A stretch of 36,151 bases of DNA from a virus: the IMG/VR virus record IMGVR_UViG_3300013131_000009, positions 1 through 36,151 of that record, one strand, 5' to 3'. The position numbers and the translations under genes were made by a program. Shown in pieces: positions 1,607 through 34,758 of the stretch. Position 1 is the stretch's first letter. Each line of letters opens with the position of its first letter. The notes beneath the pieces were generated by a model. That model was not told the origin of the DNA. It saw only the letters and a list, made by a program, of their open reading frames with translations, and searched no databases.

Positions 1607-2237
1607 TTGCTTGCTCCAAAAACGTTGTGTCATGCCACCATTCTTTGTTTTCTTGAAGATACTTAGTGTGATCATCTTGAGTGCCGTTCCATTCTTCCAA
1701 AGTGATTGAATCCGCAATGCATTGACCGACTTTAGGGAAAGTCTGTAACGCTTCTGACTTCAAGCGATATACCAACTGTTCACCCATTTCTTTTGATGGA
1801 ATCGGATGCAAAAGCTCTGAATCAGGTTCTTCAGGAATATTTACTGCCCATAACTTTTGATCATCTTTAGTCATTTGCGCCACCTTCTTCTTTAACTGTG
1901 CTTTGAGCAGCTCAATTTCAGATTGCAATTCTTCAACTTTTTCAGAATGCAAAACTTTAAGATTTTCAGATGTAAAAGCGTTTTGACAATCTTTAGCTAT
2001 GCGCTCAATAGTTTTTTCAAGATCAAGAAATGATTGAGAATCTGAACTATTCAATCCATGTTTAAAAGCCCCTTGAACAGCACCAAAAATAGTTGAATAG
2101 TGATATTTCTGTCCTGCAAATTTGCTAGAATTAATATATGTTTCTTGCTGTTTTTCAGGTATTTTCCCAAGAATAATTCCTGATTCATTTGCGGAAGAAT
2201 AAATCACCCATGCTTTATTTAATCTAATTTCCATCAC
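1599..2237 (-). CDS. Hypothetical early protein with central coiled-coil segment
   Basis: 212-aa ORF containing EELQSEIELLKAQLKKKVAQ. Its start overlaps the stop of the upstream gene. Confidence 0.65.
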   Translation of the reverse strand: MMEIRLNKAWVIYSSANESGIILGKIPEKQQETYINSSKFAGQKYHYSTIFGAVQGAFKHGLNSSDSQSFLDLEKTIERIAKDCQNAFTSENLKVLHSEKVEELQSEIELLKAQLKKKVAQMTKDDQKLWAVNIPEEPDSELLHPIPSKEMGEQLVYRLKSEALQTFPKVGQCIADSITLEEWNGTQDDHTKYLQENKEWWHDTTFLEQAND

Positions 2238-2458
2238 GCCACCTTCAAACTTTCTAAAAATTCTTTGCCATTGTTTAGATACTGCTTTAAGAAAAGCACG
2301 TATTTTTGCTTCATCGGCTTATTCATCCGACCTGTATAGTCCATTTCTAAGCGTTGCTTTGCGTTGAAATACTGCACTGATGTTTGTGTTCGCTTTCCTT
2401 TAAATCCGCCTTTAATCAGCCAAATTTCAAAGCAAGTGAGAATGTTTTTACTCACCAT
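2234..2458 (-). CDS. Hypothetical small protein (start uncertain)
   Basis: The track ORF 2234..2626 overlaps the exonuclease gene by 110 nt. The internal ATG at 2458 (MVSKNILT...) avoids the overlap. Confidence 0.45.
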   Translation of the reverse strand: MVSKNILTCFEIWLIKGGFKGKRTQTSVQYFNAKQRLEMDYTGRMNKPMKQKYVLFLKQYLNNGKEFLESLKVA

Positions 2459-3403: not shown

Positions 3404-4275
3404 CACTGAGCCTCCACCGCTACACGCTGCGCATCTGTCAAAGCATAACCATCCAAGATATAAGCCTTGTCAATCGCACCAGCATTCAACTGTTCAAGTA
3501 CCGCGCCAAATTCATCATCGCTTAGCGGTAGTTTTGGTGCTTCTAAATCCGCAACCGATTCGCTGTGGTCGATATAATCAAACTCGTCTTTTTCCACATC
3601 ACGGATGATTGCTTGATCTGCCATTTGTGCTTTTTGCATATCAATTGAAAGTGGTGCCTGCTTCGATAAAAGTAGCTTCAACACGGTTTTAAGTGCCATC
3701 GCTTCAAACTGATCTTTCCACACGCCAAAGCCTTTTTTAGCTGTTTGGCTGTATTTGTTAGCGTGCTTCATTACTTCTTCTTTACTCATGTAAAGTTCAG
3801 CAGTAAAGCCATTAATCAGCTTGAAAAACGCCACATATCCAATCGGGTTGCCATTTGGCTTAACTGACCAATCGAACTCATAACCAAGTAAAGGATTTTC
3901 GCTAATCAACTGCCCATCATAAACAGGTGTTGCAGCAATACGACTGAACTGACCAGAACGTTGTGCTAACTGGATGTATCCCTTGTACCCAAGTTGAAAT
4001 TGAGCTTCGATGGTGTTTGTTTTGTTGTTCTTGAAAGGAACAATGTAGGCAAAACCGAGATTGTTATTGATTGGCAAATTCAGCGTTGCAGCCATACATG
4101 CAGCACTAAAAATAGTTTGAGGATCTGCATTTACCAACATTGAGTTGCTGTTCACGATCTGCAATACAGACGTTGCAAAAGCAGGGGCATTTTTACCAAC
4201 AAGTTCTTTTAGCTTTTCCTGAACCATTGGCTTTGCGAAAAAGTCTTTAGCGTTGTGTTTTACTGGTGCATTCAT
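3403..4275 (-). CDS. recT: RecT-family single-strand annealing protein
   Basis: GFAYIVPF, QFQLGYKGYIQLAQRSGQ and GYVAFFKL are characteristic RecT blocks. 290 aa, adjacent to the exonuclease gene. Confidence 0.85.
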   Translation of the reverse strand: MNAPVKHNAKDFFAKPMVQEKLKELVGKNAPAFATSVLQIVNSNSMLVNADPQTIFSAACMAATLNLPINNNLGFAYIVPFKNNKTNTIEAQFQLGYKGYIQLAQRSGQFSRIAATPVYDGQLISENPLLGYEFDWSVKPNGNPIGYVAFFKLINGFTAELYMSKEEVMKHANKYSQTAKKGFGVWKDQFEAMALKTVLKLLLSKQAPLSIDMQKAQMADQAIIRDVEKDEFDYIDHSESVADLEAPKLPLSDDEFGAVLEQLNAGAIDKAYILDGYALTDAQRVAVEAQ

Positions 4276-4344
4276 TTCTATTCTCCGAGCAAATATCTGC
4301 GCAATTTCCTTTGATTTTGGATAAATTGCGCAGATTTGTTCTCA

Positions 4345-4539
4345 TTAGGCTGCTTTCTTTAAAAGCTGTTCTGTTTTTTGTGCTTCAATCGCTTTGATTT
4401 CAGCAATCCAGTTTTCGTATTCGTTACGATCTAAATGACCGAATGCGTATAAAGTCTCTACTGCTTGATTAAGCTCAGAAGTCGTATAAACACGATCAAG
4501 CTTTGACTTCATGTTCGAGAGATATGATTGAGCGTTCAT
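4345..4539 (-). CDS. Hypothetical small protein
   Basis: 64-aa ORF whose start overlaps the stop of the upstream gene. Confidence 0.55.
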   Translation of the reverse strand: MNAQSYLSNMKSKLDRVYTTSELNQAVETLYAFGHLDRNEYENWIAEIKAIEAQKTEQLLKKAA

Positions 4540-5321
4540 CTCTTAATCCCTCCACGCAAAGCTGCTACGACTTGCTTGATTTCTTCTTCGGTGCGCCAAC
4601 AAGCAAAGTGAGTGCAACCAACATGATGAACAATGGACTTATATCCCAATGGAGTTGATGAATCTAAAACCCAAATTAACTCATTGCTTTTCGGCTCAAA
4701 AGGCGCAGGAATCTCCACGTTTAATGTGATGGTGCGGGGTTTGATTCGGAATCTAAAAGCATTACCAAGAAACATTCCAAGAAGGTGATGATTATTAGCT
4801 CTTACCCAATTATTTTCCTTGTCTCTTAACTCAACCTCTTTCCCATCCGCCAAAGCTCGTAACGCATCAGCCCCACTAATCAAGCCTTGCTCTAATGACT
4901 TTTGAATTGGCTTTAAATCGCTGATTTTGTACTCATCATCTTCAACTTCATCCCATAGTTGCCATTCATTTTTGAAGTAGTTGTATCCATACCAAGAGCC
5001 ATTTATATTTATTGCAGCTCCATTCATGCCATCACAAGAGTGAGTCGCATCATTCACATCATTACGATGCAAAACAACAAGGTCTCGAAGTTCAGGTAGG
5101 GTGAGTTCTTTTCCAACCCACCCATCAAGCATTACATCTTCATCCTTGTCGAAATAGCACAAGCAATTTTTCCCTTGGAAATCCTTTGTAAAAAGAAGAC
5201 CAAGTCTCCATGAAACAACCTCTTTTCCTGAGCCATTCCACTCATAACCCAACTCAAAAAACAACTCCTGAGCTTCTCTACTTTCTGCTTCGTTATTCAC
5301 TTTGATTTTGTAGTTATTCAT
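4536..5321 (-). CDS. Hypothetical early protein
   Basis: Start set at ATG 5321 (MNNYKIKV), with GGAG 8 nt upstream. The track start at 5330 is a GTG. No motif recognised. Confidence 0.65.
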   Translation of the reverse strand: MNNYKIKVNNEAESREAQELFFELGYEWNGSGKEVVSWRLGLLFTKDFQGKNCLCYFDKDEDVMLDGWVGKELTLPELRDLVVLHRNDVNDATHSCDGMNGAAININGSWYGYNYFKNEWQLWDEVEDDEYKISDLKPIQKSLEQGLISGADALRALADGKEVELRDKENNWVRANNHHLLGMFLGNAFRFRIKPRTITLNVEIPAPFEPKSNELIWVLDSSTPLGYKSIVHHVGCTHFACWRTEEEIKQVVAALRGGIKR

Positions 5322-5322
5322 C

Positions 5323-5436
5323 TCACACACTCCACACAGCAGGGCAGATCACCGTGTAAAGCACGTATAGAGCTGCAATTAGCAAAAGGAAATAAATGAT
5401 CATTCCAATAACGCAGTTTTTCCATGTGTTAGGCAT
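5323..5436 (-). CDS. 37-aa hydrophobic membrane peptide (below the track's reporting length)
   Basis: AGGAGAACGTT ATG. Product MPNTWKNCVIGMIIYFLLLIAALYVLYTVICPAVWSV has one TM helix. Its stop lies 1 nt before the next start. Confidence 0.55.
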   Translation of the reverse strand: MPNTWKNCVIGMIIYFLLLIAALYVLYTVICPAVWSV

Positions 5437-5454
5437 AACGTTCTCCTGGAGCGC

Positions 5455-5838
5455 TTAAACGCGCTCTCTTAGTTCTTGTTCGATGATTTCTTTGATCTCT
5501 ACAACATCGAGACGATCAACGTATGCTTGGATTTCACCATCTTCGTTGTAGACGCGAATGTCTTTGATTTCTTTTACTTCAACATCACGCCAGTTATGAC
5601 CCACGCCATTTCCATCCATGTAAACGTCTGCAACGTATTCCACTTCCAACGAATACTGCTCATCAGCAGTTAAGAGAGTTGCTTGCTCAGCTTTGACATT
5701 GATTTCGTCAAGTTTGAAAGGAGCCATCACATAGACTGGCTCGTTTGTTTTTGCTGGTACGATCGCATAAGCAGCAGTTAATGCACTTACTACGCCTGCA
5801 AAGCCGATTGATTTGACTACATTTGCTTTTATGTTCAT
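5455..5838 (-). CDS. Exported or membrane-anchored acidic protein, first gene after PL
   Basis: Start at ATG 5838 (GAGTGAG upstream). MNIKANVVKSIGFAGVVSALTAAYA-IVPAK looks like a Sec signal peptide with an AYA cleavage site. The track start (5937) lies inside the PL promoter. Confidence 0.6.
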   Translation of the reverse strand: MNIKANVVKSIGFAGVVSALTAAYAIVPAKTNEPVYVMAPFKLDEINVKAEQATLLTADEQYSLEVEYVADVYMDGNGVGHNWRDVEVKEIKDIRVYNEDGEIQAYVDRLDVVEIKEIIEQELRERV

Positions 5839-25043: not shown

Positions 25044-25372
25044 GTATTTCTTATAAAACCCCATTTAAACTGCAATCACTGGTTGCTGGTAACAATCTAG
25101 CCTACACGGTGCCAGAGTTTGTGGTCGCACAGGTTCGCGCCTGCACCATTCACAACCCAACCGCCACGCAAAAGGCGATTGAAGTCTACATTCTGCCTGA
25201 AAACGCGCTTGATCCTGCTCCAGCCTATCGAATCATCAAGGGCACATTGTTTGAAAATGGTAGTTATCTCTGCCCAGAGCTTGCCAATCATTGTCTGCAA
25301 AAAGGTGACAAGGTGGTGTTTGTAGGTGAAGGGCTTAATGCGATTCTATCGGTTTTAGAGCAATCACAATGA
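25040..25372 (+). CDS. Hypothetical virion-module protein
   Basis: 110-aa ORF with an ATGA overlap. Confidence 0.6.
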   Translation: MSISYKTPFKLQSLVAGNNLAYTVPEFVVAQVRACTIHNPTATQKAIEVYILPENALDPAPAYRIIKGTLFENGSYLCPELANHCLQKGDKVVFVGEGLNAILSVLEQSQ

Positions 25373-25809
25373 TTACAATTCAGCGCGAGAAGTGGATTGA
25401 TTGCATAGATCAGATCATGCCTCTTTGCCAACAAGTTTTTGATCTTGAAGAAGCAAAATTTACGGGACTACCGCTTGAATTTGATACTGACATGTATATC
25501 GAGTCAGAAGAATCAAACTACTTTCACTGTTTGGTCATGAGAAAGAATGGCAAGCCAATAGGATTCCACTGGATTGTAATTAGTCCTATGCCAAGGCATA
25601 AGGGCAAAACACATGCTCATACGGATGCAATTTTTGTCGATCCAAATCATCGCAATTGCTCTGCAAAACTGCTGCAATTCTCCGAGCAATACATTAAAGA
25701 GCGCGCGCAATTCTGGACACTGGCCAATCTTGCTACAAATGACCGTCAAGCCATGTGGCAAAGAAAAAGCTTTCAGCCAATCGAAACAATTATGTTTAAA
25801 AAATTATGA
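25369..25809 (+). CDS. Possible GNAT-fold N-acetyltransferase
   Basis: 146 aa. AIFVDPNHRNCSAKLLQFSEQYIKE weakly resembles GNAT motif A (V-x-P-x-x-R ... L). Coupled into the virion operon. Confidence 0.4.
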   Translation: MITIQREKWIDCIDQIMPLCQQVFDLEEAKFTGLPLEFDTDMYIESEESNYFHCLVMRKNGKPIGFHWIVISPMPRHKGKTHAHTDAIFVDPNHRNCSAKLLQFSEQYIKERAQFWTLANLATNDRQAMWQRKSFQPIETIMFKKL

Positions 25810-27853: not shown

Positions 27854-28561
27854 ATGGCAACCCCTCAGCAATATTTAAACAATCCAAACGTACGGAAGTT
27901 GCTTGATGTGATTGCCAGTGCTGAGGGTGTTCGGCATGGCTATAACACTATCTTTGGCAATGAGCGTTTTGGCAATCTATCTGCACACCCAAATGTGCGA
28001 AAATCATTTAAACAGACTGATGGTAAAACCAATTTCACCACGGCAGCAGGTCGTTACCAGTTCTTAAAAGGCACATGGGATGGTCTATCGCGCCAGTATG
28101 GCCTGAAAGACTTCTCGCCACAGTCGCAGGACATTGGTGCTATTGGCCTGATAATGCAAAAAGGCGCATTGAACGATGTGCTAAAAGGCAACTATCAGGC
28201 TGCTATTCAAAAACTCGGCAGCACTTGGGCATCCTTGCCATCCTCACCCTACGCACAACCAAGACGCTCACAAGCTGAGATTAATAAGTTTCTCGGCGGT
28301 AGTGCTCAACAAGGTGGCTATCAGCCGCAATACCTAAGCGCAGCACAGGCGGCTAAATTATTCCCAAAACAAGCAGCTCCAAAATCTAATTATTTGAGTG
28401 CCGAAGATGCCGCTCGATTGTTTCCAAAACAACAAAGGTTGCCGTCTGATTACTTGAGTGCGGAAGAAGTTGCAAAAATATTCCCTCAAAATAACCAGAC
28501 TACACAACAAACAGGCTACTTATCTGCTGAGCAGGCAGCAAAACTATTCCCAGGGGGCTAA
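27854..28561 (+). CDS. Virion-associated lytic transglycosylase (lambda R / GH104-like) with C-terminal tandem repeats
   Basis: AEG...GYN, AAGRYQF, YGLKDFSPQSQD and TWASLP align by eye with lambda R (WSEG, GAGRYQL, LGLKDFSPKSQD, IWASLP). Four YLSAExAAKLFP repeats follow. Confidence 0.75.
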   Translation: MATPQQYLNNPNVRKLLDVIASAEGVRHGYNTIFGNERFGNLSAHPNVRKSFKQTDGKTNFTTAAGRYQFLKGTWDGLSRQYGLKDFSPQSQDIGAIGLIMQKGALNDVLKGNYQAAIQKLGSTWASLPSSPYAQPRRSQAEINKFLGGSAQQGGYQPQYLSAAQAAKLFPKQAAPKSNYLSAEDAARLFPKQQRLPSDYLSAEEVAKIFPQNNQTTQQTGYLSAEQAAKLFPGG

Positions 28562-28562
28562 C

Positions 28563-30731
28563 ATGGCATCTCAAACAATGGCATTTGTGCAGAATGCAAA
28601 GAGCCAAGGTAAAAAAGACTCAGAGATTTGGAATGAGTTGCGAAAAGACCCAGACTTTAACGCAAGCACAAAGCGGGCTAGAGCCGCTGGAATTACACAA
28701 GAGCAAATTGCCAAAGACTTTGGCTTAAATATTCGCTTTGTAGATTCTCCAAAACAACAACCCACCCCAAAACCTGAAAAACCATCATTCATTGCAGACG
28801 TTGGTGCTGGTATTGATGATATTTATAGCGGTGTGGCTCAGGGTGCTGAATACGTTGCTGATGGTATTCGTGGCACCACTAACAAAGTGCTAGGCACAAA
28901 CCTTGATACTAACCGCTATGAGAAATACACCAAGTACAAGGCAGATGAGAAAAAGACCTACGAGCAGGCGCGCAAGGATAGCGGTGCTGGAATGAATGTA
29001 GGCCGTTTTATTGGTCAAACCGTTGCAACGGCTCCGGTTGCTGGACTAACTAAAGGCTATGGTGCTGCAAAAGTGTTATCAGGTGCTGGCGCTAAAGTCA
29101 CAGCACAAAATGCTTTGGTTGGTGGAGCTATTGGTGGTGTAGGTTTTGCTGAAAACGCTGAGCAGCGAAAAGCCAATATTGCTTCTGGTGCTGTTGGTGG
29201 TGCTTTAGGCGGTATTGCTGGTGACAAGATCGGCAAAGGCATTACCAAAGTTTCACAAAAGGTTGTGCCATCTGCTAAGGCTGCCGCAACTGCTCGTGTG
29301 AGTGCTACCGTAGACGACCAGATTGAAATTGCATTAAAGCAAAGCAACATCAAGATGAGTGACTTGTCTGACGATGTTGTGGATGGATTGCGAAAAGACG
29401 TAGCGGCAGCACTCAAGTCTGGTAAAGCAGTCAATAAAGAGGCTATTGCTCGCAAAGTGGTCCTTGATCGTGTTGGTATTCGACCAACTCAGGCGCAACT
29501 CACTGGCGATCCGAAGTTATGGCAAAAACAAGCTGAGCTTGCCAAAATCAATGGTGCTGGTGATCCGTTACGCGACAAGCTAGTACAGGATAATGTGCAG
29601 CTTGCGGGATTGCTTGATGATGTGGCTGCTAAAACAGGCGGAAAGGCTGATGATGCTTATGGTGCTGCCAGCGGCGCGGTCGATGCGTTAGAAGGTCAAC
29701 AGGCGCAAAACAAAGCGTTTATTGGTGCTGCTTATGACAATGCTAGAAATGCAGCAGGGAATGATATTGTTCTTGATGGTCGCGGCTTCGCAAATGATGC
29801 AATCACCAAGCTTGACGAGCAGTATGCCATGTCCAGCTTACCATCTGGTGTAAGTAAGATCATTAAGGATATTGAAAAGAATCCACAGGCTTTCACACTT
29901 GATAAGTCTGAGGAATTAATAAAAATCCTTAATCGTGAATACAGCTCATCACTTCAGAATGGGCAGCCAACCAGTTCCACTTATGCAATTGGTGTAGTCC
30001 GCGATGCGTTAGAGAATCGCCAGAGTGAAGCAATGCAGAATCTGCTTTCAACTGGTGGTAATGATGCTGCTCAGGCATATCAGTTCGCCCGTGATGCTTA
30101 TAAGTTTAACGCACAGCAGATTGAAGGTATTCCGCTACTCAAAGATGCAATCAAAGGTGTAGAGCCTGACAAGCTATTCCAAAAGCATGTCTTAAATGGC
30201 AATGTTGCCGAACTGCAAAAGACTGTCGATCTACTCAACAATGTCAATCCGCAATCCGTGGCCGACATTAAGGGGCAGGTAGTCAAGTTCATTTCTGATA
30301 AGGCGATCAACCAAAACGGCCAGTTTAGCCCAGCAGGAATGAAACGAGCACTAGATTCAATCGGGGATCGTAGGCTTGCTGCAATGTTCACACCTGATGA
30401 AGTGGCAAGGCTGAAAGACATTGGTATGGCTGGCCAATACCTTGTGACACAACCCGCTCACTCCTATGTGAACAACTCAAACACATCCGCTGCTTTGATG
30501 AATTTCTTGGGTGGAATTATCAATCGCCCTGGATTCCGAGTTGCATTATCCCCATTCAAGGATGTTGCTGACTCAATTCAGGTGAGCCGAGCAATGAAAG
30601 CTAATCTAGCAGGTGATGCAAAAGCTTCGGCTGATGTGATTAATAATGTGATGTTTAGTGAGGGTGACAAGAGAATGATTGAGCAGCTAACGAAACTTGG
30701 TGTAATCGGTGGGGCAAATGCAACTCAGTGA
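28563..30731 (+). CDS. Large internal virion / DNA-ejection protein (P22 gp16 position)
   Basis: Start at ATG 28563 (GGGGG + 5 nt). 722 aa with a Gly/Ala-rich hydrophobic segment (VGGAIGGVGF...GAVGGALGGIAG). The track ORF has a 105-nt upstream extension that overlaps the previous gene. Confidence 0.6.
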   Translation: MASQTMAFVQNAKSQGKKDSEIWNELRKDPDFNASTKRARAAGITQEQIAKDFGLNIRFVDSPKQQPTPKPEKPSFIADVGAGIDDIYSGVAQGAEYVADGIRGTTNKVLGTNLDTNRYEKYTKYKADEKKTYEQARKDSGAGMNVGRFIGQTVATAPVAGLTKGYGAAKVLSGAGAKVTAQNALVGGAIGGVGFAENAEQRKANIASGAVGGALGGIAGDKIGKGITKVSQKVVPSAKAAATARVSATVDDQIEIALKQSNIKMSDLSDDVVDGLRKDVAAALKSGKAVNKEAIARKVVLDRVGIRPTQAQLTGDPKLWQKQAELAKINGAGDPLRDKLVQDNVQLAGLLDDVAAKTGGKADDAYGAASGAVDALEGQQAQNKAFIGAAYDNARNAAGNDIVLDGRGFANDAITKLDEQYAMSSLPSGVSKIIKDIEKNPQAFTLDKSEELIKILNREYSSSLQNGQPTSSTYAIGVVRDALENRQSEAMQNLLSTGGNDAAQAYQFARDAYKFNAQQIEGIPLLKDAIKGVEPDKLFQKHVLNGNVAELQKTVDLLNNVNPQSVADIKGQVVKFISDKAINQNGQFSPAGMKRALDSIGDRRLAAMFTPDEVARLKDIGMAGQYLVTQPAHSYVNNSNTSAALMNFLGGIINRPGFRVALSPFKDVADSIQVSRAMKANLAGDAKASADVINNVMFSEGDKRMIEQLTKLGVIGGANATQ

Positions 30732-30844
30732 TTATCCCACCAATCCTTAATGCTGATAAAAATATTTGCAGCAATGCTTAGCACAAGCATGATTAACCAC
30801 CATGCTATAAACATGCCGACAATTGCTGCAATTATTTGAATCAT
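30725..30844 (-). CDS. 39-aa hydrophobic membrane peptide (below the track's reporting length)
   Basis: The product is MIQIIAAIVGMFIAWWLIMLVLSIAANIFISIKDWWDNH. Its ATG lies 1 nt after the lipoprotein stop. Its 3' end overlaps the convergent ejection-protein gene by 7 nt. Confidence 0.5.
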   Translation of the reverse strand: MIQIIAAIVGMFIAWWLIMLVLSIAANIFISIKDWWDNH

Positions 30845-30845
30845 A

Positions 30846-31331
30846 TTATTTTACCTTGTATTTCGTCTTTAAGCTCTGCTCAAGCCATGCAGCATCAAAT
30901 GCTTTCACATTGGTTGGGTTTTCTTTAAAGCACTGCACTGTAATTGATGAAACAGGTTTTTCAATATTTGAGATGGTGCCACCGCTATAAGTTGTGGTTG
31001 CTTGGCCAAAGGCTGAATTTCCATACACATTGGCGCTTGCGTTAGTGTGTACTGATGACGGACTAATATAGCGTGAGGTTTTAACGCGGTTCTCTTGATC
31101 CAGCACCACAAAGTACGGGCATTGGTTTTGAATAGATAACTCAGCAGCACGGAGCAAAGCAAAGTCATAAACACGACCACCAGAAGTAAAAGCATTACCA
31201 CTCACACTAATTCTGAAAGTATCTGGTGAAAGCATGGTTTCATCAAACCCGCCAAATATAGAATTTGGCTTGTATGAGCTTGCGCAGCCTGACAGCAGAA
31301 AAGCACCCACAACAAACAGCATTTTTTTCAT
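30846..31331 (-). CDS. Lipoprotein of unknown function, opposite strand to the virion operon
   Basis: MKKMLFVVGAFLLSGC has the lipobox LSGC. 161 aa, lying between the ejection-protein and tailspike genes. Confidence 0.8.
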   Translation of the reverse strand: MKKMLFVVGAFLLSGCASSYKPNSIFGGFDETMLSPDTFRISVSGNAFTSGGRVYDFALLRAAELSIQNQCPYFVVLDQENRVKTSRYISPSSVHTNASANVYGNSAFGQATTTYSGGTISNIEKPVSSITVQCFKENPTNVKAFDAAWLEQSLKTKYKVK

Positions 31332-31373
31332 GTTTTAACTCACTTTTTATTTTCCTAAGATTAAACCACATCA

Positions 31374-31397
31374 GCCGCCTTAATTGGCGGTTTTTTA
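31374..31397 (+). terminator. Terminator-like hairpin immediately upstream of the tailspike RBS
   Basis: GCCGCC-TTAATT-GGCGGT is followed by a T run that starts at the last stem base (TTTTTTATT, 31391..31399). It ends 13 nt before the ATG at 31410. Confidence 0.45.
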
Positions 31398-31409
31398 TTG
31401 GAGCTATAA

Positions 31410-33500
31410 ATGGCCAATCTCGTTACACCAATGCCAATGATTCGCGCTCGCTTCTTTGATGACAATGCCCGCCCATTATCAGGTGGTAAAATTTACACCT
31501 ACGAGCCAAACACCACTACGCCAAAAACCACATACAAAGACTTAGCGGCAACAACCCCAAACACCAACCCGATCTTGCTTGATGTGGCGGGTGAAGCGGA
31601 TATTTATTTTGATGGCCAGTATCGAGTAATTGTTGAGTCGTGGCGCGGTGAGCGGCTTTATGATGTTGATAATATTGGAGCACTGGCGCAAATTAAAGCC
31701 AACTTCGTTGTCGACGCAAGCGGACAAACACAGCAGCAGATAAATGATTATAGAAAATCAAAATTCATCTATCCTGAAGATTTTGGTGCAGTCGGAGATG
31801 GTGTTTATAATGACGCTGTAGCAATGCAAAACGCTCTAAATGTAGCAGCAACAAATAAGCGAGTTCTGTCATTCACGCATGGAAAAACTTACAACTGTAC
31901 AGGTGTCACACTTGACGCTTCATGTCATATTTATGGTAATGGTGCTACACTTAAAGGCTATCTTCGTGTAACTGGTGATGATCTTGTTATTCGAGATTTT
32001 AATTTAATAAGCACTAATGCTGTGATAGGGCTATATTTATTTGGCTCTACCACAGTCCCAACTAGATATTACAGACAGAAAATCCATAATGTTAAAATTA
32101 CTTTCGATACTGGTGTTGCTACTGGTGATTCATTCGGCTTGTATGCAAGTAACATTGACAACTTAGAGGTTACATCTTGTAATATTCAGTATGCGATACA
32201 GTTGATTGGATGTACAGATTATTTAATTGACGGTAACATTATTGACGGTAACAACTACTCTAACAATAATGAACTTATTCATGCATCTAGGTTGTCATAT
32301 GGTCAGATTTTAAATAACACGTTTAAAAACTCTCTTGATAATTTTATTGACTTGTATTCTTCTGGTGCACGTACAATTGTTGCAAACAATAGATTTTTGT
32401 CTTGTAAAACAAGACTTGGTACAGCAATAGAAATTAAGGTTACAATGTCAGACGATCCAGCTAACTCGTCTAGTGACGCATTAGGATGGGCTGAACAAGT
32501 CATAATTTCAAATAACTATTTTTACGACATTAAGGCTTATGGTGTACAAACTACATCGTTTATCAACATTTATTATATTGACTCACGTGCTGCACCCTCG
32601 TTTAGTTGGGCAAATACACCAAGAAACTTCATTATTGATGGTAATATTTTTGATGGTTTTGATGCAACTTTACACGGTACAACTTACTTTTCCGCAATCA
32701 AATTGGAGTCTATCAACGCAGCGTTAATAAGTAATAATGTTTTCAGAAATCTAGCATTGGGAACATCAAACGACATATCATCGTGTGTTTGGATTGAAAA
32801 TTGCCAAGACATTATTGTAAATTCGAATAGAATGTCAATAAAGGACGGTACTGGTATTTCCCTTCACGGGGATTGTAAAAATATTACAATATCAAATAAT
32901 CACATATTGCAAGATTTAAACAAATCACAAATACCAAAATACGGGATACGTATTACGAAAGAGGGCGCAAGACCTGATCCGACAATCACATTTAGTAAAT
33001 TTGTAGGAAACACTGTTTTTTGCTCACTTTCTGCGTTTCGTCAATTGTTCTACGCTAACGGATACATGAATGACTGTATTATCTCTGATAACGTTTTCCA
33101 AGAGCAAACAGATTTCGGCAAAATCAACAGGTGTATTATTTCTGATAATAAATTTTTTGTCGGGTCAACTCGTTTTCAGGCTTTGGGTGTTGGCGATCTT
33201 GGCGGTATTTGTGCACACAACACGATTACAAATAATCAGGTTGAATCAAACACAACTACGCAAAAACCATGTATATCAATAACTCGACTGCGCGGTAGTA
33301 ATATTTCTGGAAACACGGCGAGAAATGCAACACATGGTATGATTATTCTTGGAACAAACGTGGCTGGAGAATTGGACTATCTGAATATTAAAGATAATTT
33401 TTCGATTAACCAAACACAGGCAAACTTTCCAACATTGTCAAATATTAATGCAACAGATAGTGCAACACACCAATCAGCAAACAATCAAAAGATAACATGA
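31410..33500 (+). CDS. Tailspike / tail fibre with pectate-lyase-type beta-helix (probable polysaccharide depolymerase)
   Basis: The N-terminus (GGKIYTYEPNTTTPKTTYKDLAATTPNTNPILLD) is a common phage fibre anchor. YPEDFGAVGDGVYNDAVAMQNALN is the Pectate_lyase_3 start, followed by many N/I/G-rich beta-helix rungs. Confidence 0.8.
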   Translation: MANLVTPMPMIRARFFDDNARPLSGGKIYTYEPNTTTPKTTYKDLAATTPNTNPILLDVAGEADIYFDGQYRVIVESWRGERLYDVDNIGALAQIKANFVVDASGQTQQQINDYRKSKFIYPEDFGAVGDGVYNDAVAMQNALNVAATNKRVLSFTHGKTYNCTGVTLDASCHIYGNGATLKGYLRVTGDDLVIRDFNLISTNAVIGLYLFGSTTVPTRYYRQKIHNVKITFDTGVATGDSFGLYASNIDNLEVTSCNIQYAIQLIGCTDYLIDGNIIDGNNYSNNNELIHASRLSYGQILNNTFKNSLDNFIDLYSSGARTIVANNRFLSCKTRLGTAIEIKVTMSDDPANSSSDALGWAEQVIISNNYFYDIKAYGVQTTSFINIYYIDSRAAPSFSWANTPRNFIIDGNIFDGFDATLHGTTYFSAIKLESINAALISNNVFRNLALGTSNDISSCVWIENCQDIIVNSNRMSIKDGTGISLHGDCKNITISNNHILQDLNKSQIPKYGIRITKEGARPDPTITFSKFVGNTVFCSLSAFRQLFYANGYMNDCIISDNVFQEQTDFGKINRCIISDNKFFVGSTRFQALGVGDLGGICAHNTITNNQVESNTTTQKPCISITRLRGSNISGNTARNATHGMIILGTNVAGELDYLNIKDNFSINQTQANFPTLSNINATDSATHQSANNQKIT

Positions 33501-33569: not shown

Positions 33570-33848
33570 ATGCAAGAGCATGAAAAAACACTTTTCACTT
33601 TAGTTGTTATAGGAGCGCTAATCGGTATGAGTAGGCTACTAGTTTCAAGCGAACCTTTGTCAGCTCGATTAATCATTGGGCGAACAATCCTTGGTTCAGC
33701 TACTTCAACAATTGCAGGCATCGTGTTAATTCAATTTCCTGATCTCAGCCCTGTGGCACTGGTTGCTATCGCATGTGCTTTGGGTATTTTGGGAAGTACG
33801 TTTATCGAAGAGTACTTGAAGAAAAACGTAAATAAGTGGGGTGGGTGA
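33570..33848 (+). CDS. Holin (three predicted TM helices)
   Basis: 92 aa with AGGGGGAACATC ATG. TM segments are LFTLVVIGALIGM, IIGRTILGSATSTIAGIVLI and VALVAIACALGILGSTFI, with a charged C-terminus. It lies directly upstream of the endolysin. Confidence 0.7.
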   Translation: MQEHEKTLFTLVVIGALIGMSRLLVSSEPLSARLIIGRTILGSATSTIAGIVLIQFPDLSPVALVAIACALGILGSTFIEEYLKKNVNKWGG

Positions 33849-34402
33849 TGACAACTAAACCATTTTTTGATGCTGCTCGTGTTATTGCTGGAGGCAAGCT
33901 TACACAAGAACAGGTAGATAAGCTCAATGATGTTGTTGATGAGCTTCAACAAAAAGGCATGAAAATAAGCCAAGTTGGTATTGAACTAATCTCTAGCTTT
34001 GAAGATACCAAGCTTCAAGCATATGACGATGGTGTAGGTGTATGGACTATTGGCATTGGAACTACAGTTTATCCCAATGGCGTAAACGTAAAGAAAGGCG
34101 ATAAGTGTACTTTAGAACAAGCAAAAGAATATTTTGCACATGATTTAAAGCGCTTTGAATCTTCTGTGAATAAGCTCGTGGAAGTGCCTTTATCTCAAAA
34201 CCAGTTTGATGCTTTGGTCAGCCTTGTTTATAACATTGGTCAAACAGCTTTTAGCAATTCAACTCTTTTAAAGAAACTGAATGCCAAAGATTACCAAGGG
34301 GCAGCGGATCAATTTTTACGTTGGAACAAGGGCGGTGGCAAGGTTATGAAAGGCTTAGTTCGTCGTCGTGAAGCTGAGCGAGCACTATTTCTAAAGAAGT
34401 AA
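33848..34402 (+). CDS. Endolysin, GH24 (T4/P22-type) lysozyme
   Basis: ELISSFEDTKLQAYDDGVGVWTIGIGTT carries the E-x8-D-x5-T catalytic triad. The conserved block NQFDALVSLVYNIG is also present. Start overlaps the holin stop (TGATG). Confidence 0.9.
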   Translation: MTTKPFFDAARVIAGGKLTQEQVDKLNDVVDELQQKGMKISQVGIELISSFEDTKLQAYDDGVGVWTIGIGTTVYPNGVNVKKGDKCTLEQAKEYFAHDLKRFESSVNKLVEVPLSQNQFDALVSLVYNIGQTAFSNSTLLKKLNAKDYQGAADQFLRWNKGGGKVMKGLVRRREAERALFLKK

Positions 34403-34407
34403 CTTAT

Positions 34408-34533
34408 ATGTGCAAACGCTCTTTCATTACTTCAATCGTTACAGTGCTGTGCTTGCTTCTGTCAAGCTGCACAGCTCACTCAATTAAAACCAATGTCAAT
34501 ATCAGTGTTTGCTTGCAGTGTGTGCAACATTAG
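34408..34533 (+). CDS. 41-aa lipoprotein ORF (possible Rz1-like o-spanin)
   Basis: MCKRSFITSIVTVLCLLLSSC has the lipobox LSSC. It lies right after the endolysin. The SD is weak and no partner i-spanin ORF is visible. Confidence 0.4.
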   Translation: MCKRSFITSIVTVLCLLLSSCTAHSIKTNVNISVCLQCVQH

Positions 34534-34539
34534 CGAGTA

Positions 34540-34758
34540 TCAATCCCTCACTACTTCCACACCCTTAATTCTCCGCTTAGTTATATATGTACTGGCTTCA
34601 GTAGAATCATAGAACGTCTTTGCACCATCTTTTTCTTTCTTAAAAACATACTGCATTGTGTACATAGCATTTATATCTGACGAGTCTTGATATTCTTCAT
34701 GCTCGGTTGTTTGTACGTGTAAGTAAAGTCCGTTCTTCTTTATGTAGTAAGGTCTCAT
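34540..34758 (-). CDS. Hypothetical 72-aa protein translationally coupled to the integrase
   Basis: ATGA overlap with the int stop (CAATGAGA). No TM and no motif recognised. Confidence 0.55.
   Translation of the reverse strand: MRPYYIKKNGLYLHVQTTEHEEYQDSSDINAMYTMQYVFKKEKDGAKTFYDSTEASTYITKRRIKGVEVVRD

Follow-up and report, generated by a model that had tools for sequence, protein, structure and literature searches.

In IMGVR_UViG_3300013131_000009, a phage sequence of 36,151 nucleotides (nt) that is called the window below, two short genes lie on the minus strand between the last ejection-type gene and the tailspike gene. One of them encodes a lipoprotein of 161 amino acids (aa), the other, here called the mini-ORF (ORF, open reading frame), a hydrophobic peptide of 39 aa. 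The question raised by this locus is whether the two genes act together as a two-component exclusion or receptor-masking module, as proposed in the initial annotation, or whether one of them carries the function on its own. Our analysis points to the lipoprotein gene. Judged from sequence comparisons, it appears probable that the cassette is a prophage-expressed envelope moron, in which case the late operon of a temperate P22-like phage would have taken up an additional gene. The more complete statement that this lipoprotein moron is expressed from the prophage, changes the cell envelope and excludes incoming DNA, with the mini-protein as an optional addition, has in our estimation slightly better than an even chance of being correct.

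The cassette itself has the anatomy first described for it (Table 1). The 161-aa lipoprotein gene with its lipobox LSGC was found in the expected place on the minus strand, with its stop codon TAA at 30848..30846. The ATG of the mini-ORF follows 1 nt after this stop, as the coordinates confirm (30844 vs 30846), and its final 7 nt (30725..30731) do coincide with the end of the convergent plus-strand gene, whose stop is at 30731. A survey from about 15.2 to 34.4 kb, restricted to ORFs with 80 aa or more and no overlap with a larger ORF of the plus strand, showed the cassette to be the sole minus-strand interruption, with all other ORFs on the plus strand. The mini-ORF is, however, not unannotated as had been supposed, since it is already called as gene P0043 in the JGI record of the contig.

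To assess the relation between the two genes, related loci were compared. Related P22-like prophages encode the protein P0002, which is 93% identical to the window lipoprotein, in no fewer than eight distinct places. The related loci considered here encode exactly this protein (L001-L008), and a ninth locus (L009) is a non-prophage copy in a Moraxellaceae metagenome-assembled genome (MAG). The mini-ORF is present as a coding ORF in four of the eight prophage loci (L002, L004, L005 and L008), with the same TAAnATG junction to the lipoprotein gene, which is thereby kept in five copies. The other four (L001, L003, L006 and L007) encode the identical 161-aa lipoprotein and lack the mini-ORF. The expectation that the small gene would be retained in relatives was thus borne out for one half of the loci and not for the other. 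In the loci without it, the lipoprotein gene is followed by a hairpin terminator and then by an ORF on the late strand encoding a 76-aa membrane protein with two spans. Homology of these loci to the window runs from 31738 to 30844, ends exactly at the lipoprotein stop, and the C-terminal half of the ejection-type gene also differs from that of the window. The ejection-type proteins of loci with the mini-ORF have 722-750 aa and are 73-89% identical, those of loci without it belong to a 680-aa class of only 41% identity with another C-terminus. The mini-ORF therefore appears to follow the C-terminal class of the ejection protein and not the lipoprotein.

The copy in L009 leads in the same direction. 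Its lipoprotein is 83% identical and adjoins a type I restriction-modification system and a transposase fragment. Homology to the window is limited to the lipoprotein gene and about 33 nt upstream of it, and the gene is followed by a terminator and not by a mini-ORF. The portable unit thus appears to be the lipoprotein gene together with these approximately 33 nt. Furthermore, none of 36 distant loci of the lipoprotein family carries a comparable hydrophobic ORF after the lipoprotein gene. An obligate two-component module, in which the lipoprotein in the outer and the mini-protein in the inner membrane would jointly mask the phage's own receptor or block injection, is in accordance with the spacing of 1 nt on the same strand, the conserved junction in five copies and the purifying selection on both genes described below. 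Such a module is nevertheless improbable, given the identical lipoprotein without the mini-ORF in half of the prophage loci with a homology break precisely at its stop codon, the lack of such a partner in L009 and in the 36 distant loci, and the independence of the lipoprotein from the receptor domain of the tailspike. Relatives of the mini-ORF were also not found elsewhere, neither by tblastn against phages nor with the motif IKDWWDNH, whose two matches in viral and metagenome contigs are chance matches within one tape-measure protein. The mini-ORF is an optional, lineage-restricted addition tied to one ejection-protein class and not an obligate partner. As the two-gene module is unsupported, the lipoprotein alone is the first thing to test.

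Both genes are nevertheless coding and under purifying selection, because their differences are concentrated at third codon positions and are mostly synonymous. Between the lipoprotein gene of the window and its 93%-identical copies, 38 of 52 differences fall on codon position 3 (P = 5e-9), and pairwise comparison of L002, L005 and L008 revealed 4-8 synonymous and no non-synonymous changes per pair, which argues for strong purifying selection on this gene. For the mini-ORF, four distinct copies are available. They differ at 15 sites, of which eleven are third codon positions (binomial P = 0.0018). The changes at these eleven are without exception synonymous, the remaining four changes are G/S, I/V, I/V and V/A, and in the other five frames over the mini-ORF the changes would be mostly non-synonymous. 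By this pattern, the mini-ORF is a real protein-coding gene under purifying selection. Its product has a grand average of hydropathy (GRAVY) of 1.41 with one hydrophobic span of about 30 residues. It is probably an inner-membrane mini-protein and probably translationally coupled to the lipoprotein gene.

Two other readings of the mini-ORF were considered. In the first, it would encode a toxic membrane peptide resembling a type I toxin or a holin, or would not be a gene at all. Type I toxins have a usual size range that takes in 39 aa, the peptide is very hydrophobic, and the overlapping convergent transcription could serve as antisense control. We regard this reading as very improbable, since the mini-ORF is probably coupled to the lipoprotein gene and not a stand-alone locus with its own antisense RNA, scans of the region for Rfam families and tRNAs found nothing, the holin and endolysin of the phage and a lipobox ORF are located elsewhere (33570-34533), and the codon-position pattern argues for translation. 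In the second reading, the mini-protein itself would be the exclusion factor, a minimal SieA analogue hindering the incoming ejection conduit of one C-terminal class, and the lipoprotein would be unrelated cargo. This would fit the occurrence of the mini-ORF only together with the 722-750-aa ejection class, with whose gene end it overlaps, and also the related locus L096, in which an opposite-strand ORF of 115 aa with multiple membrane spans likewise overlaps the end of the ejection gene. However, the co-variation spans two lineages only and physical linkage alone predicts it, a single helix of 39 aa is hardly comparable to the 164-aa multi-span SieA, to which there is no homology, and the 76-aa membrane ORF of the other lineage lies on the late strand, where expression in lysogens is not expected. 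We therefore give this alternative little credence, and the reading of the lipoprotein gene as the functional unit is followed below.

The lipoprotein was also compared with its neighbour, the tailspike. P0002 is found together with tailspikes of 619, 627 and 795 aa and the window variant with one of 696 aa, and these four tailspikes share only their N-terminal 113-220 residues. The window tailspike gene shares no more than approximately its first 110 codons (to about 31738) with relatives that have the same lipoprotein. Because the four tailspikes have only their N-termini in common, a role of the lipoprotein that is tied to the tailspike's own receptor is unlikely. This also bears on the earlier proposal that the lipoprotein masks the receptor of its own phage, which is difficult to reconcile with the same lipoprotein being paired with four unrelated receptor domains. 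The known examples of such masking are Cor of phi80, N15, T1 and HK022 and Llp of T5, which are lipoproteins blocking the FhuA receptor used by the phage itself. Like the window lipoprotein, they are small phage lipoproteins encoded beside tail or receptor-binding genes, an analogy of placement drawn from general knowledge. A relationship is not supported, since the only PHROG match to Cor (phrog_1119, E = 0.0042) covers residues 1-22, which correspond to signal peptide and lipobox, and no match to Llp was obtained in PHROGs. In contrast to Cor and Llp, which block the phage's own receptor, the window lipoprotein occurs with four unrelated receptor domains.

What, then, is the lipoprotein? Searches of both cassette proteins against Pfam, PHROGs and PADLOC gave no informative match. 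The lipoprotein matches the NCBIfam model NF047637 (CC0125/CC1285 family lipoprotein) with 82.7 bits against a cut-off of 40, and the alignment covers residues 2-154 of 161 and profile positions 2-168 of 169. It is thus a full-length member of this family. Invariant positions in an alignment of 20 family sequences are C16, Y20, G27, G28, G45, T49 and D56-F-A-L-L-R-A62, the DFALLRA segment being the helix motif of the family. Sorting to the outer membrane is most likely, because the lipidated cysteine is followed by alanine at position +2. The family is very large and mainly cellular: a profile search of 1.84 billion representative proteins yielded 7,079 clusters at E <= 0.001, with genome matches in Proteobacteria, Nitrospirae, Verrucomicrobia, Planctomycetes, Elusimicrobia and others. 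The phage lipoprotein does not exceed 45% identity with any of the cellular members found, and we regard it as an offshoot of the family borne by mobile elements. A search by peptide pattern in IMG/VR and JGI metagenome contigs found no close relatives of it. No function of the CC0125/CC1285 family is described in the libraries searched, and literature searches for CC0125/CC1285 returned only unrelated strings from digital object identifiers and, when combined with Caulobacter, nothing. The C-terminal extensions of longer family members are heterogeneous, with Sel1 repeats in two of ten, and offer no hint of the function.

An AlphaFold2 model of the lipoprotein (predicted local distance difference test 87.8, predicted template modelling score 0.72) has a small alpha/beta domain and four long strands rich in Ser, Thr, Gly and Asn. 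Foldseek searches with this model against PDB and BFVD gave nothing significant (best E about 0.01, template modelling score (TM) < 0.3), and a search of solved structures with the family profile returned only chance matches to antibodies. TraT offers a comparison on the level of distribution. The family of this outer-membrane lipoprotein is found on chromosomes in many phyla and has repeatedly been co-opted by mobile elements, and the TraT fold comprises three transmembrane helices and a beta-sandwich assembled into a decamer (PMC11733297). The CC0125/CC1285 family, too, is found on chromosomes, phages and plasmids. The proteins themselves differ, as the window lipoprotein has no match to Pfam TraT (PF05818), its Foldseek comparison with TraT is insignificant (E 0.03-0.06, TM about 0.1), and the model shows four long strands in a small alpha/beta domain instead. 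The weak top matches of Foldseek, stems of beta-pore formers and TraT, had suggested an oligomeric membrane-inserting hairpin. This idea was set aside, as the membrane part of TraT is helical and the long strands of the lipoprotein are only weakly amphipathic when the sequence is read by eye, and it is kept as a low-probability lead.

The place at which the lipoprotein gene is found is a cargo hot spot. In IMG/VR relatives of the ejection-type protein, the gap between the ejection gene and the tail gene holds a lipoprotein of the Sbal_3080 family (L091, L093-L095), with a second, unrelated lipoprotein in L091, or an Adhesin_E-like protein and a KilA-N protein (L090), or, in L096, the opposite-strand ORF of 115 aa already mentioned (5229-5576, minus strand). 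In L092 and L097 no ORF of at least 100 aa, no lipobox ORF and no hydrophobic small ORF was detected in the slot before the tail gene. The genes that flank the lipoprotein are thus adjacent in some relatives, as expected for a moron. The slot lipoproteins of L091 and L093 were examined as possible members of the CC0125/CC1285 family and were rejected, because the family match is limited to the signal peptide. The 115-aa ORF of L096 has no family match and may be a SieA-like analogue.

Members of the CC0125/CC1285 family were also found in other positions on mobile elements. In L089, the gene of a 44%-identical member (1759-2250, plus strand) is flanked by two ejection-type genes of the same orientation and has a hairpin terminator behind it. 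The gene downstream is 67% identical to window positions 27854-28561; this we take as an independent capture in a different slot. In the three viral contigs L112-L114 (about 4295-5453, plus strand), the gene for a 235-aa CI-type repressor (phrog_4) is followed after 4 nt by a family member of the same orientation. In lambda, the position downstream of the CI repressor is held by rexAB, and this placement implies expression in lysogens. A further member follows a helix-turn-helix repressor-like gene (L108), another is inserted on the opposite strand between the tape-measure and distal tail genes of a siphovirus (L116, L117), and others are near terminase or Ant genes. The Acinetobacter phage Ab1656-2 (L079, 6001-6489) carries a 27%-identical member beside a recombinase/integrase gene, with eptA genes disrupted by insertion sequence (IS) elements and a TonB-dependent receptor gene as neighbours; its annotation as 'SEL1-like repeat protein' probably stems from family members with Sel1 C-terminal extensions. 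On the mobilizable Aeromonas caviae plasmid pKAM471_3 (L099, 5009 bp), which otherwise contains mob genes and ccdAB, a member at 3599-4081 is the sole apparent cargo. Other members are located in islands that also contain an integrase, a resolvase, IS elements or toxin-antitoxin genes. ORFs around eight loci of cellular members had no mutual similarity that would indicate conserved neighbours. On the basis of these contexts, the family has been captured repeatedly and independently by mobile elements, including at positions that are expressed in lysogens.

The window itself has the genes of a temperate P22-like podophage. Its plus-strand late region encodes terminase, portal (phrog_156), major head protein (phrog_283), a gp10-like head-closure protein (phrog_578) and a gp7-like DNA-ejection protein (phrog_598), and a CI-type repressor and an integrase, also encoded in the window, show that it is temperate. 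The host probably belongs to the Moraxellaceae (Acinetobacter-like), since the endolysin region has 74-79% identity with Acinetobacter phages and a Moraxellaceae MAG contains the closest genomic homologue that is not identical.

We then examined the surroundings of the cassette for expression signals. The Shine-Dalgarno (SD)-like GTGAG upstream of the lipoprotein gene is kept in all copies including L009. The candidate extended -10 promoter TGgTTTAAT was recognized by eye and is conserved in the window, L001, L002, L005, L007 and L008 and partly in L009. It was not reported by the promoter scan because the consensus used there demands A at position 2; the only upstream candidate of the scan, TTGTCA-17-AATCAT at 31465..31437, lies inside the tailspike gene. 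The intrinsic terminator on the plus strand is located between the cassette and the ribosome-binding site of the tailspike gene. One pair of its stem is G-C, A-U or G-U among relatives, so that it always pairs in the plus-strand RNA, whereas the minus strand of L008 would have A.C here. No terminator was found after the mini-ORF in the window, and hairpin terminators follow the lipoprotein gene in L001, L003, L006, L007, L009 and L089. The window hairpin with its T-run could bar unantiterminated transcription from the tailspike and lysis genes, as the terminator of P22 may do.

The closest parallel in placement is sieA of P22. All examined sieA genes sit between homologues of gene 16 and gene 9 (PMC10461980). 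The initial annotation had compared the locus to the sieA/immI position of P22. According to the P22 record, place and orientation of sieA indeed match: the cassette follows the last ejection gene and precedes the tailspike gene, is opposite to and convergent with the ejection gene (gene 16 in P22), and is optional among relatives as sieA is. In both phages a plus-strand terminator stands ahead of the tailspike gene, in P22 at the equivalent place before gene 9. The window slot is without the immI genes mnt, arc and ant. The products differ as well. SieA is a multi-span inner-membrane protein of 164 aa, the cassette encodes a probable outer-membrane lipoprotein and a single-span peptide of 39 aa, neither of which has a PHROG or Pfam SieA match, and the hhalign probability is 0.3%. 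In its organization, the locus resembles lambdoid morons such as bor and lom of lambda, in which an optional extra gene for an envelope protein, bracketed by a terminator, lies between conserved late genes; it differs from them in the protein family, and the promoter here is a candidate only.

We propose the following course of events. The lipoprotein gene faces against the late operon and has its own SD-like sequence and candidate extended -10 promoter, and the plus-strand terminator separates the cassette from the tailspike and lysis genes. The opposite orientation, these candidate signals and the terminator make it most likely that the cassette is transcribed from the prophage in lysogens and that convergent late transcription would silence it during lytic growth. 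The lipoprotein would then change the envelope of the lysogen in such a way that incoming mobile DNA is excluded. Since the lipoprotein is independent of tailspike specificity, the block would fall after capsule-specific adsorption, i.e. at outer-membrane penetration, at a secondary receptor or at assembly of the ejection conduit. The 39-aa peptide would be an optional inner-membrane addition, probably translationally coupled and linked to one ejection-protein class. Exclusion after adsorption is the most likely specific function of the lipoprotein, but as a tentative prediction to which we assign clearly less than an even chance.

Nearly as likely as exclusion, though unlikely when taken alone, is a host-fitness or virulence role of a conversion gene like lambda bor or lom, in which the lipoprotein would serve adhesion, serum or stress resistance or envelope homeostasis and would have no effect on phages. 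This would agree with the size and the mainly cellular distribution of the family, with the core-like chromosomal neighbourhoods of some members, with the Adhesin_E-like surface protein in the slot of a relative, with the position of the Ab1656-2 homologue beside eptA and a TonB-dependent receptor gene, and with the Sel1 protein-interaction repeats of a few members. On the other hand, exclusion is at least equally well in line with the repeated capture of the family beside genes for ejection and tail proteins, in the sieA slot and, as sole apparent cargo, on a small mobilizable plasmid.

Several observations weigh against the proposed exclusion by a prophage-expressed lipoprotein. The cassette has neither sequence nor fold similarity to the exclusion proteins Cor, Llp, SieA and TraT, and PADLOC defence models did not match either protein at E up to 1. 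The promoter scan of the 78-nt gap upstream of the lipoprotein gene found no consensus sigma-70 promoter. Some family members are located in ordinary chromosomal surroundings (L084, L103), and the native role of the family need not concern phages, given its approximately 7,079 clusters and these contexts. Finally, since the mini-ORF and the ejection gene overlap, simple physical linkage may account for the co-variation of mini-ORF and ejection-protein class.

The kind of element, a lipoprotein moron in the sieA slot, and the family name were known before. New are the finding that phages and plasmids have captured the family repeatedly and a model with no significant fold match in PDB or BFVD. 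Recurrent capture at positions of the type expressed in lysogens is a first functional lead for this lipoprotein family of about 7,000 clusters, and the cassette is a candidate for prophage-mediated envelope change in Acinetobacter-like hosts, for which phage therapy needs knowledge of prophage effects on susceptibility. A wider generalization can be formulated, which we present as speculative and consider quite unlikely in this full form: CC0125/CC1285 lipoproteins would be widespread unrecognised envelope exclusion factors with a fold unlike solved ones, which phages (in the sieA slot, downstream of cI and in tail modules) and small plasmids co-opted as plasmids did TraT, and to which the 39-aa peptide would here add an inner-membrane component matched to the ejection-protein type.

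Table 1. Features of the cassette and of the neighbouring genes in the window.
Feature	Position	Strand	Description
Lysozyme-like ejection protein gene	27854..28561	+	directly precedes the 722-aa gene
Last ejection-type gene	28563..30731	+	722 aa from ATG 28563; no family match; gp16 analogue by position only
Mini-ORF	30725..30844	-	39 aa MIQIIAAIVGMFIAWWLIMLVLSIAANIFISIKDWWDNH; ATG 1 nt past the lipoprotein stop; single hydrophobic span
Lipoprotein gene	30846..31331 (stop included)	-	161 aa, starts MKKMLFVVGAFLLSGC; lipobox LSGC, Cys16, Ala at +2
SD-like GTGAG, weak	31339..31343	-	7 nt upstream of the lipoprotein ATG; inferred from sequence
Candidate extended -10 promoter TGgTTTAAT	31360..31368	-	by eye, inferred
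Intrinsic terminator	31373..31401	+	hairpin GCCGCC-TTAATT-GGCGG then TTTTTTATT; terminator scan and centroid fold
Tailspike gene	31410..33500	+	right-handed beta-helix; Pfam Beta_helix and PHROG tail spike matches

Additional observations concern the neighbouring genes. The longest ORF of the last ejection-type gene begins with GTG 28458 and would thereby share 104 nt with the previous gene. The ATG at 28563 is located 1 nt past the previous stop and matches the MASQT... N-termini of relatives, and it is likely that this ATG, and not GTG 28458, is the start of the gene. The C-terminal third of the lysozyme-like ejection protein contains four copies of YLSAE(E/D/Q)(A/V)AK(L/I)FP, spaced every 18-20 residues approximately, behind which Tandem Repeats Finder (TRF) detected no tandem repeat on the DNA level. 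In the loci without the mini-ORF, the 76-aa two-span ORF (8513-8743 in L001, also in L003, L006 and L007) is flanked by the ejection gene and a bidirectional-looking hairpin, and its 90%-identity protein cluster comprises nine member sequences. Downstream of the tailspike gene of the window, holin and endolysin genes are present; the endolysin gene is directly followed by an ORF of 41 aa with the lipobox LLSSC (34408-34533, plus strand), which may encode an o-spanin. Positions 34411-34752, which have 94% identity with L001, also contain a 72-aa minus-strand ORF adjoining the integrase. A gene for a 146-aa GNAT acetyltransferase-like protein (25369-25809, plus strand; phrog_1249) lies amid the tail and ejection genes and is kept in related prophages.

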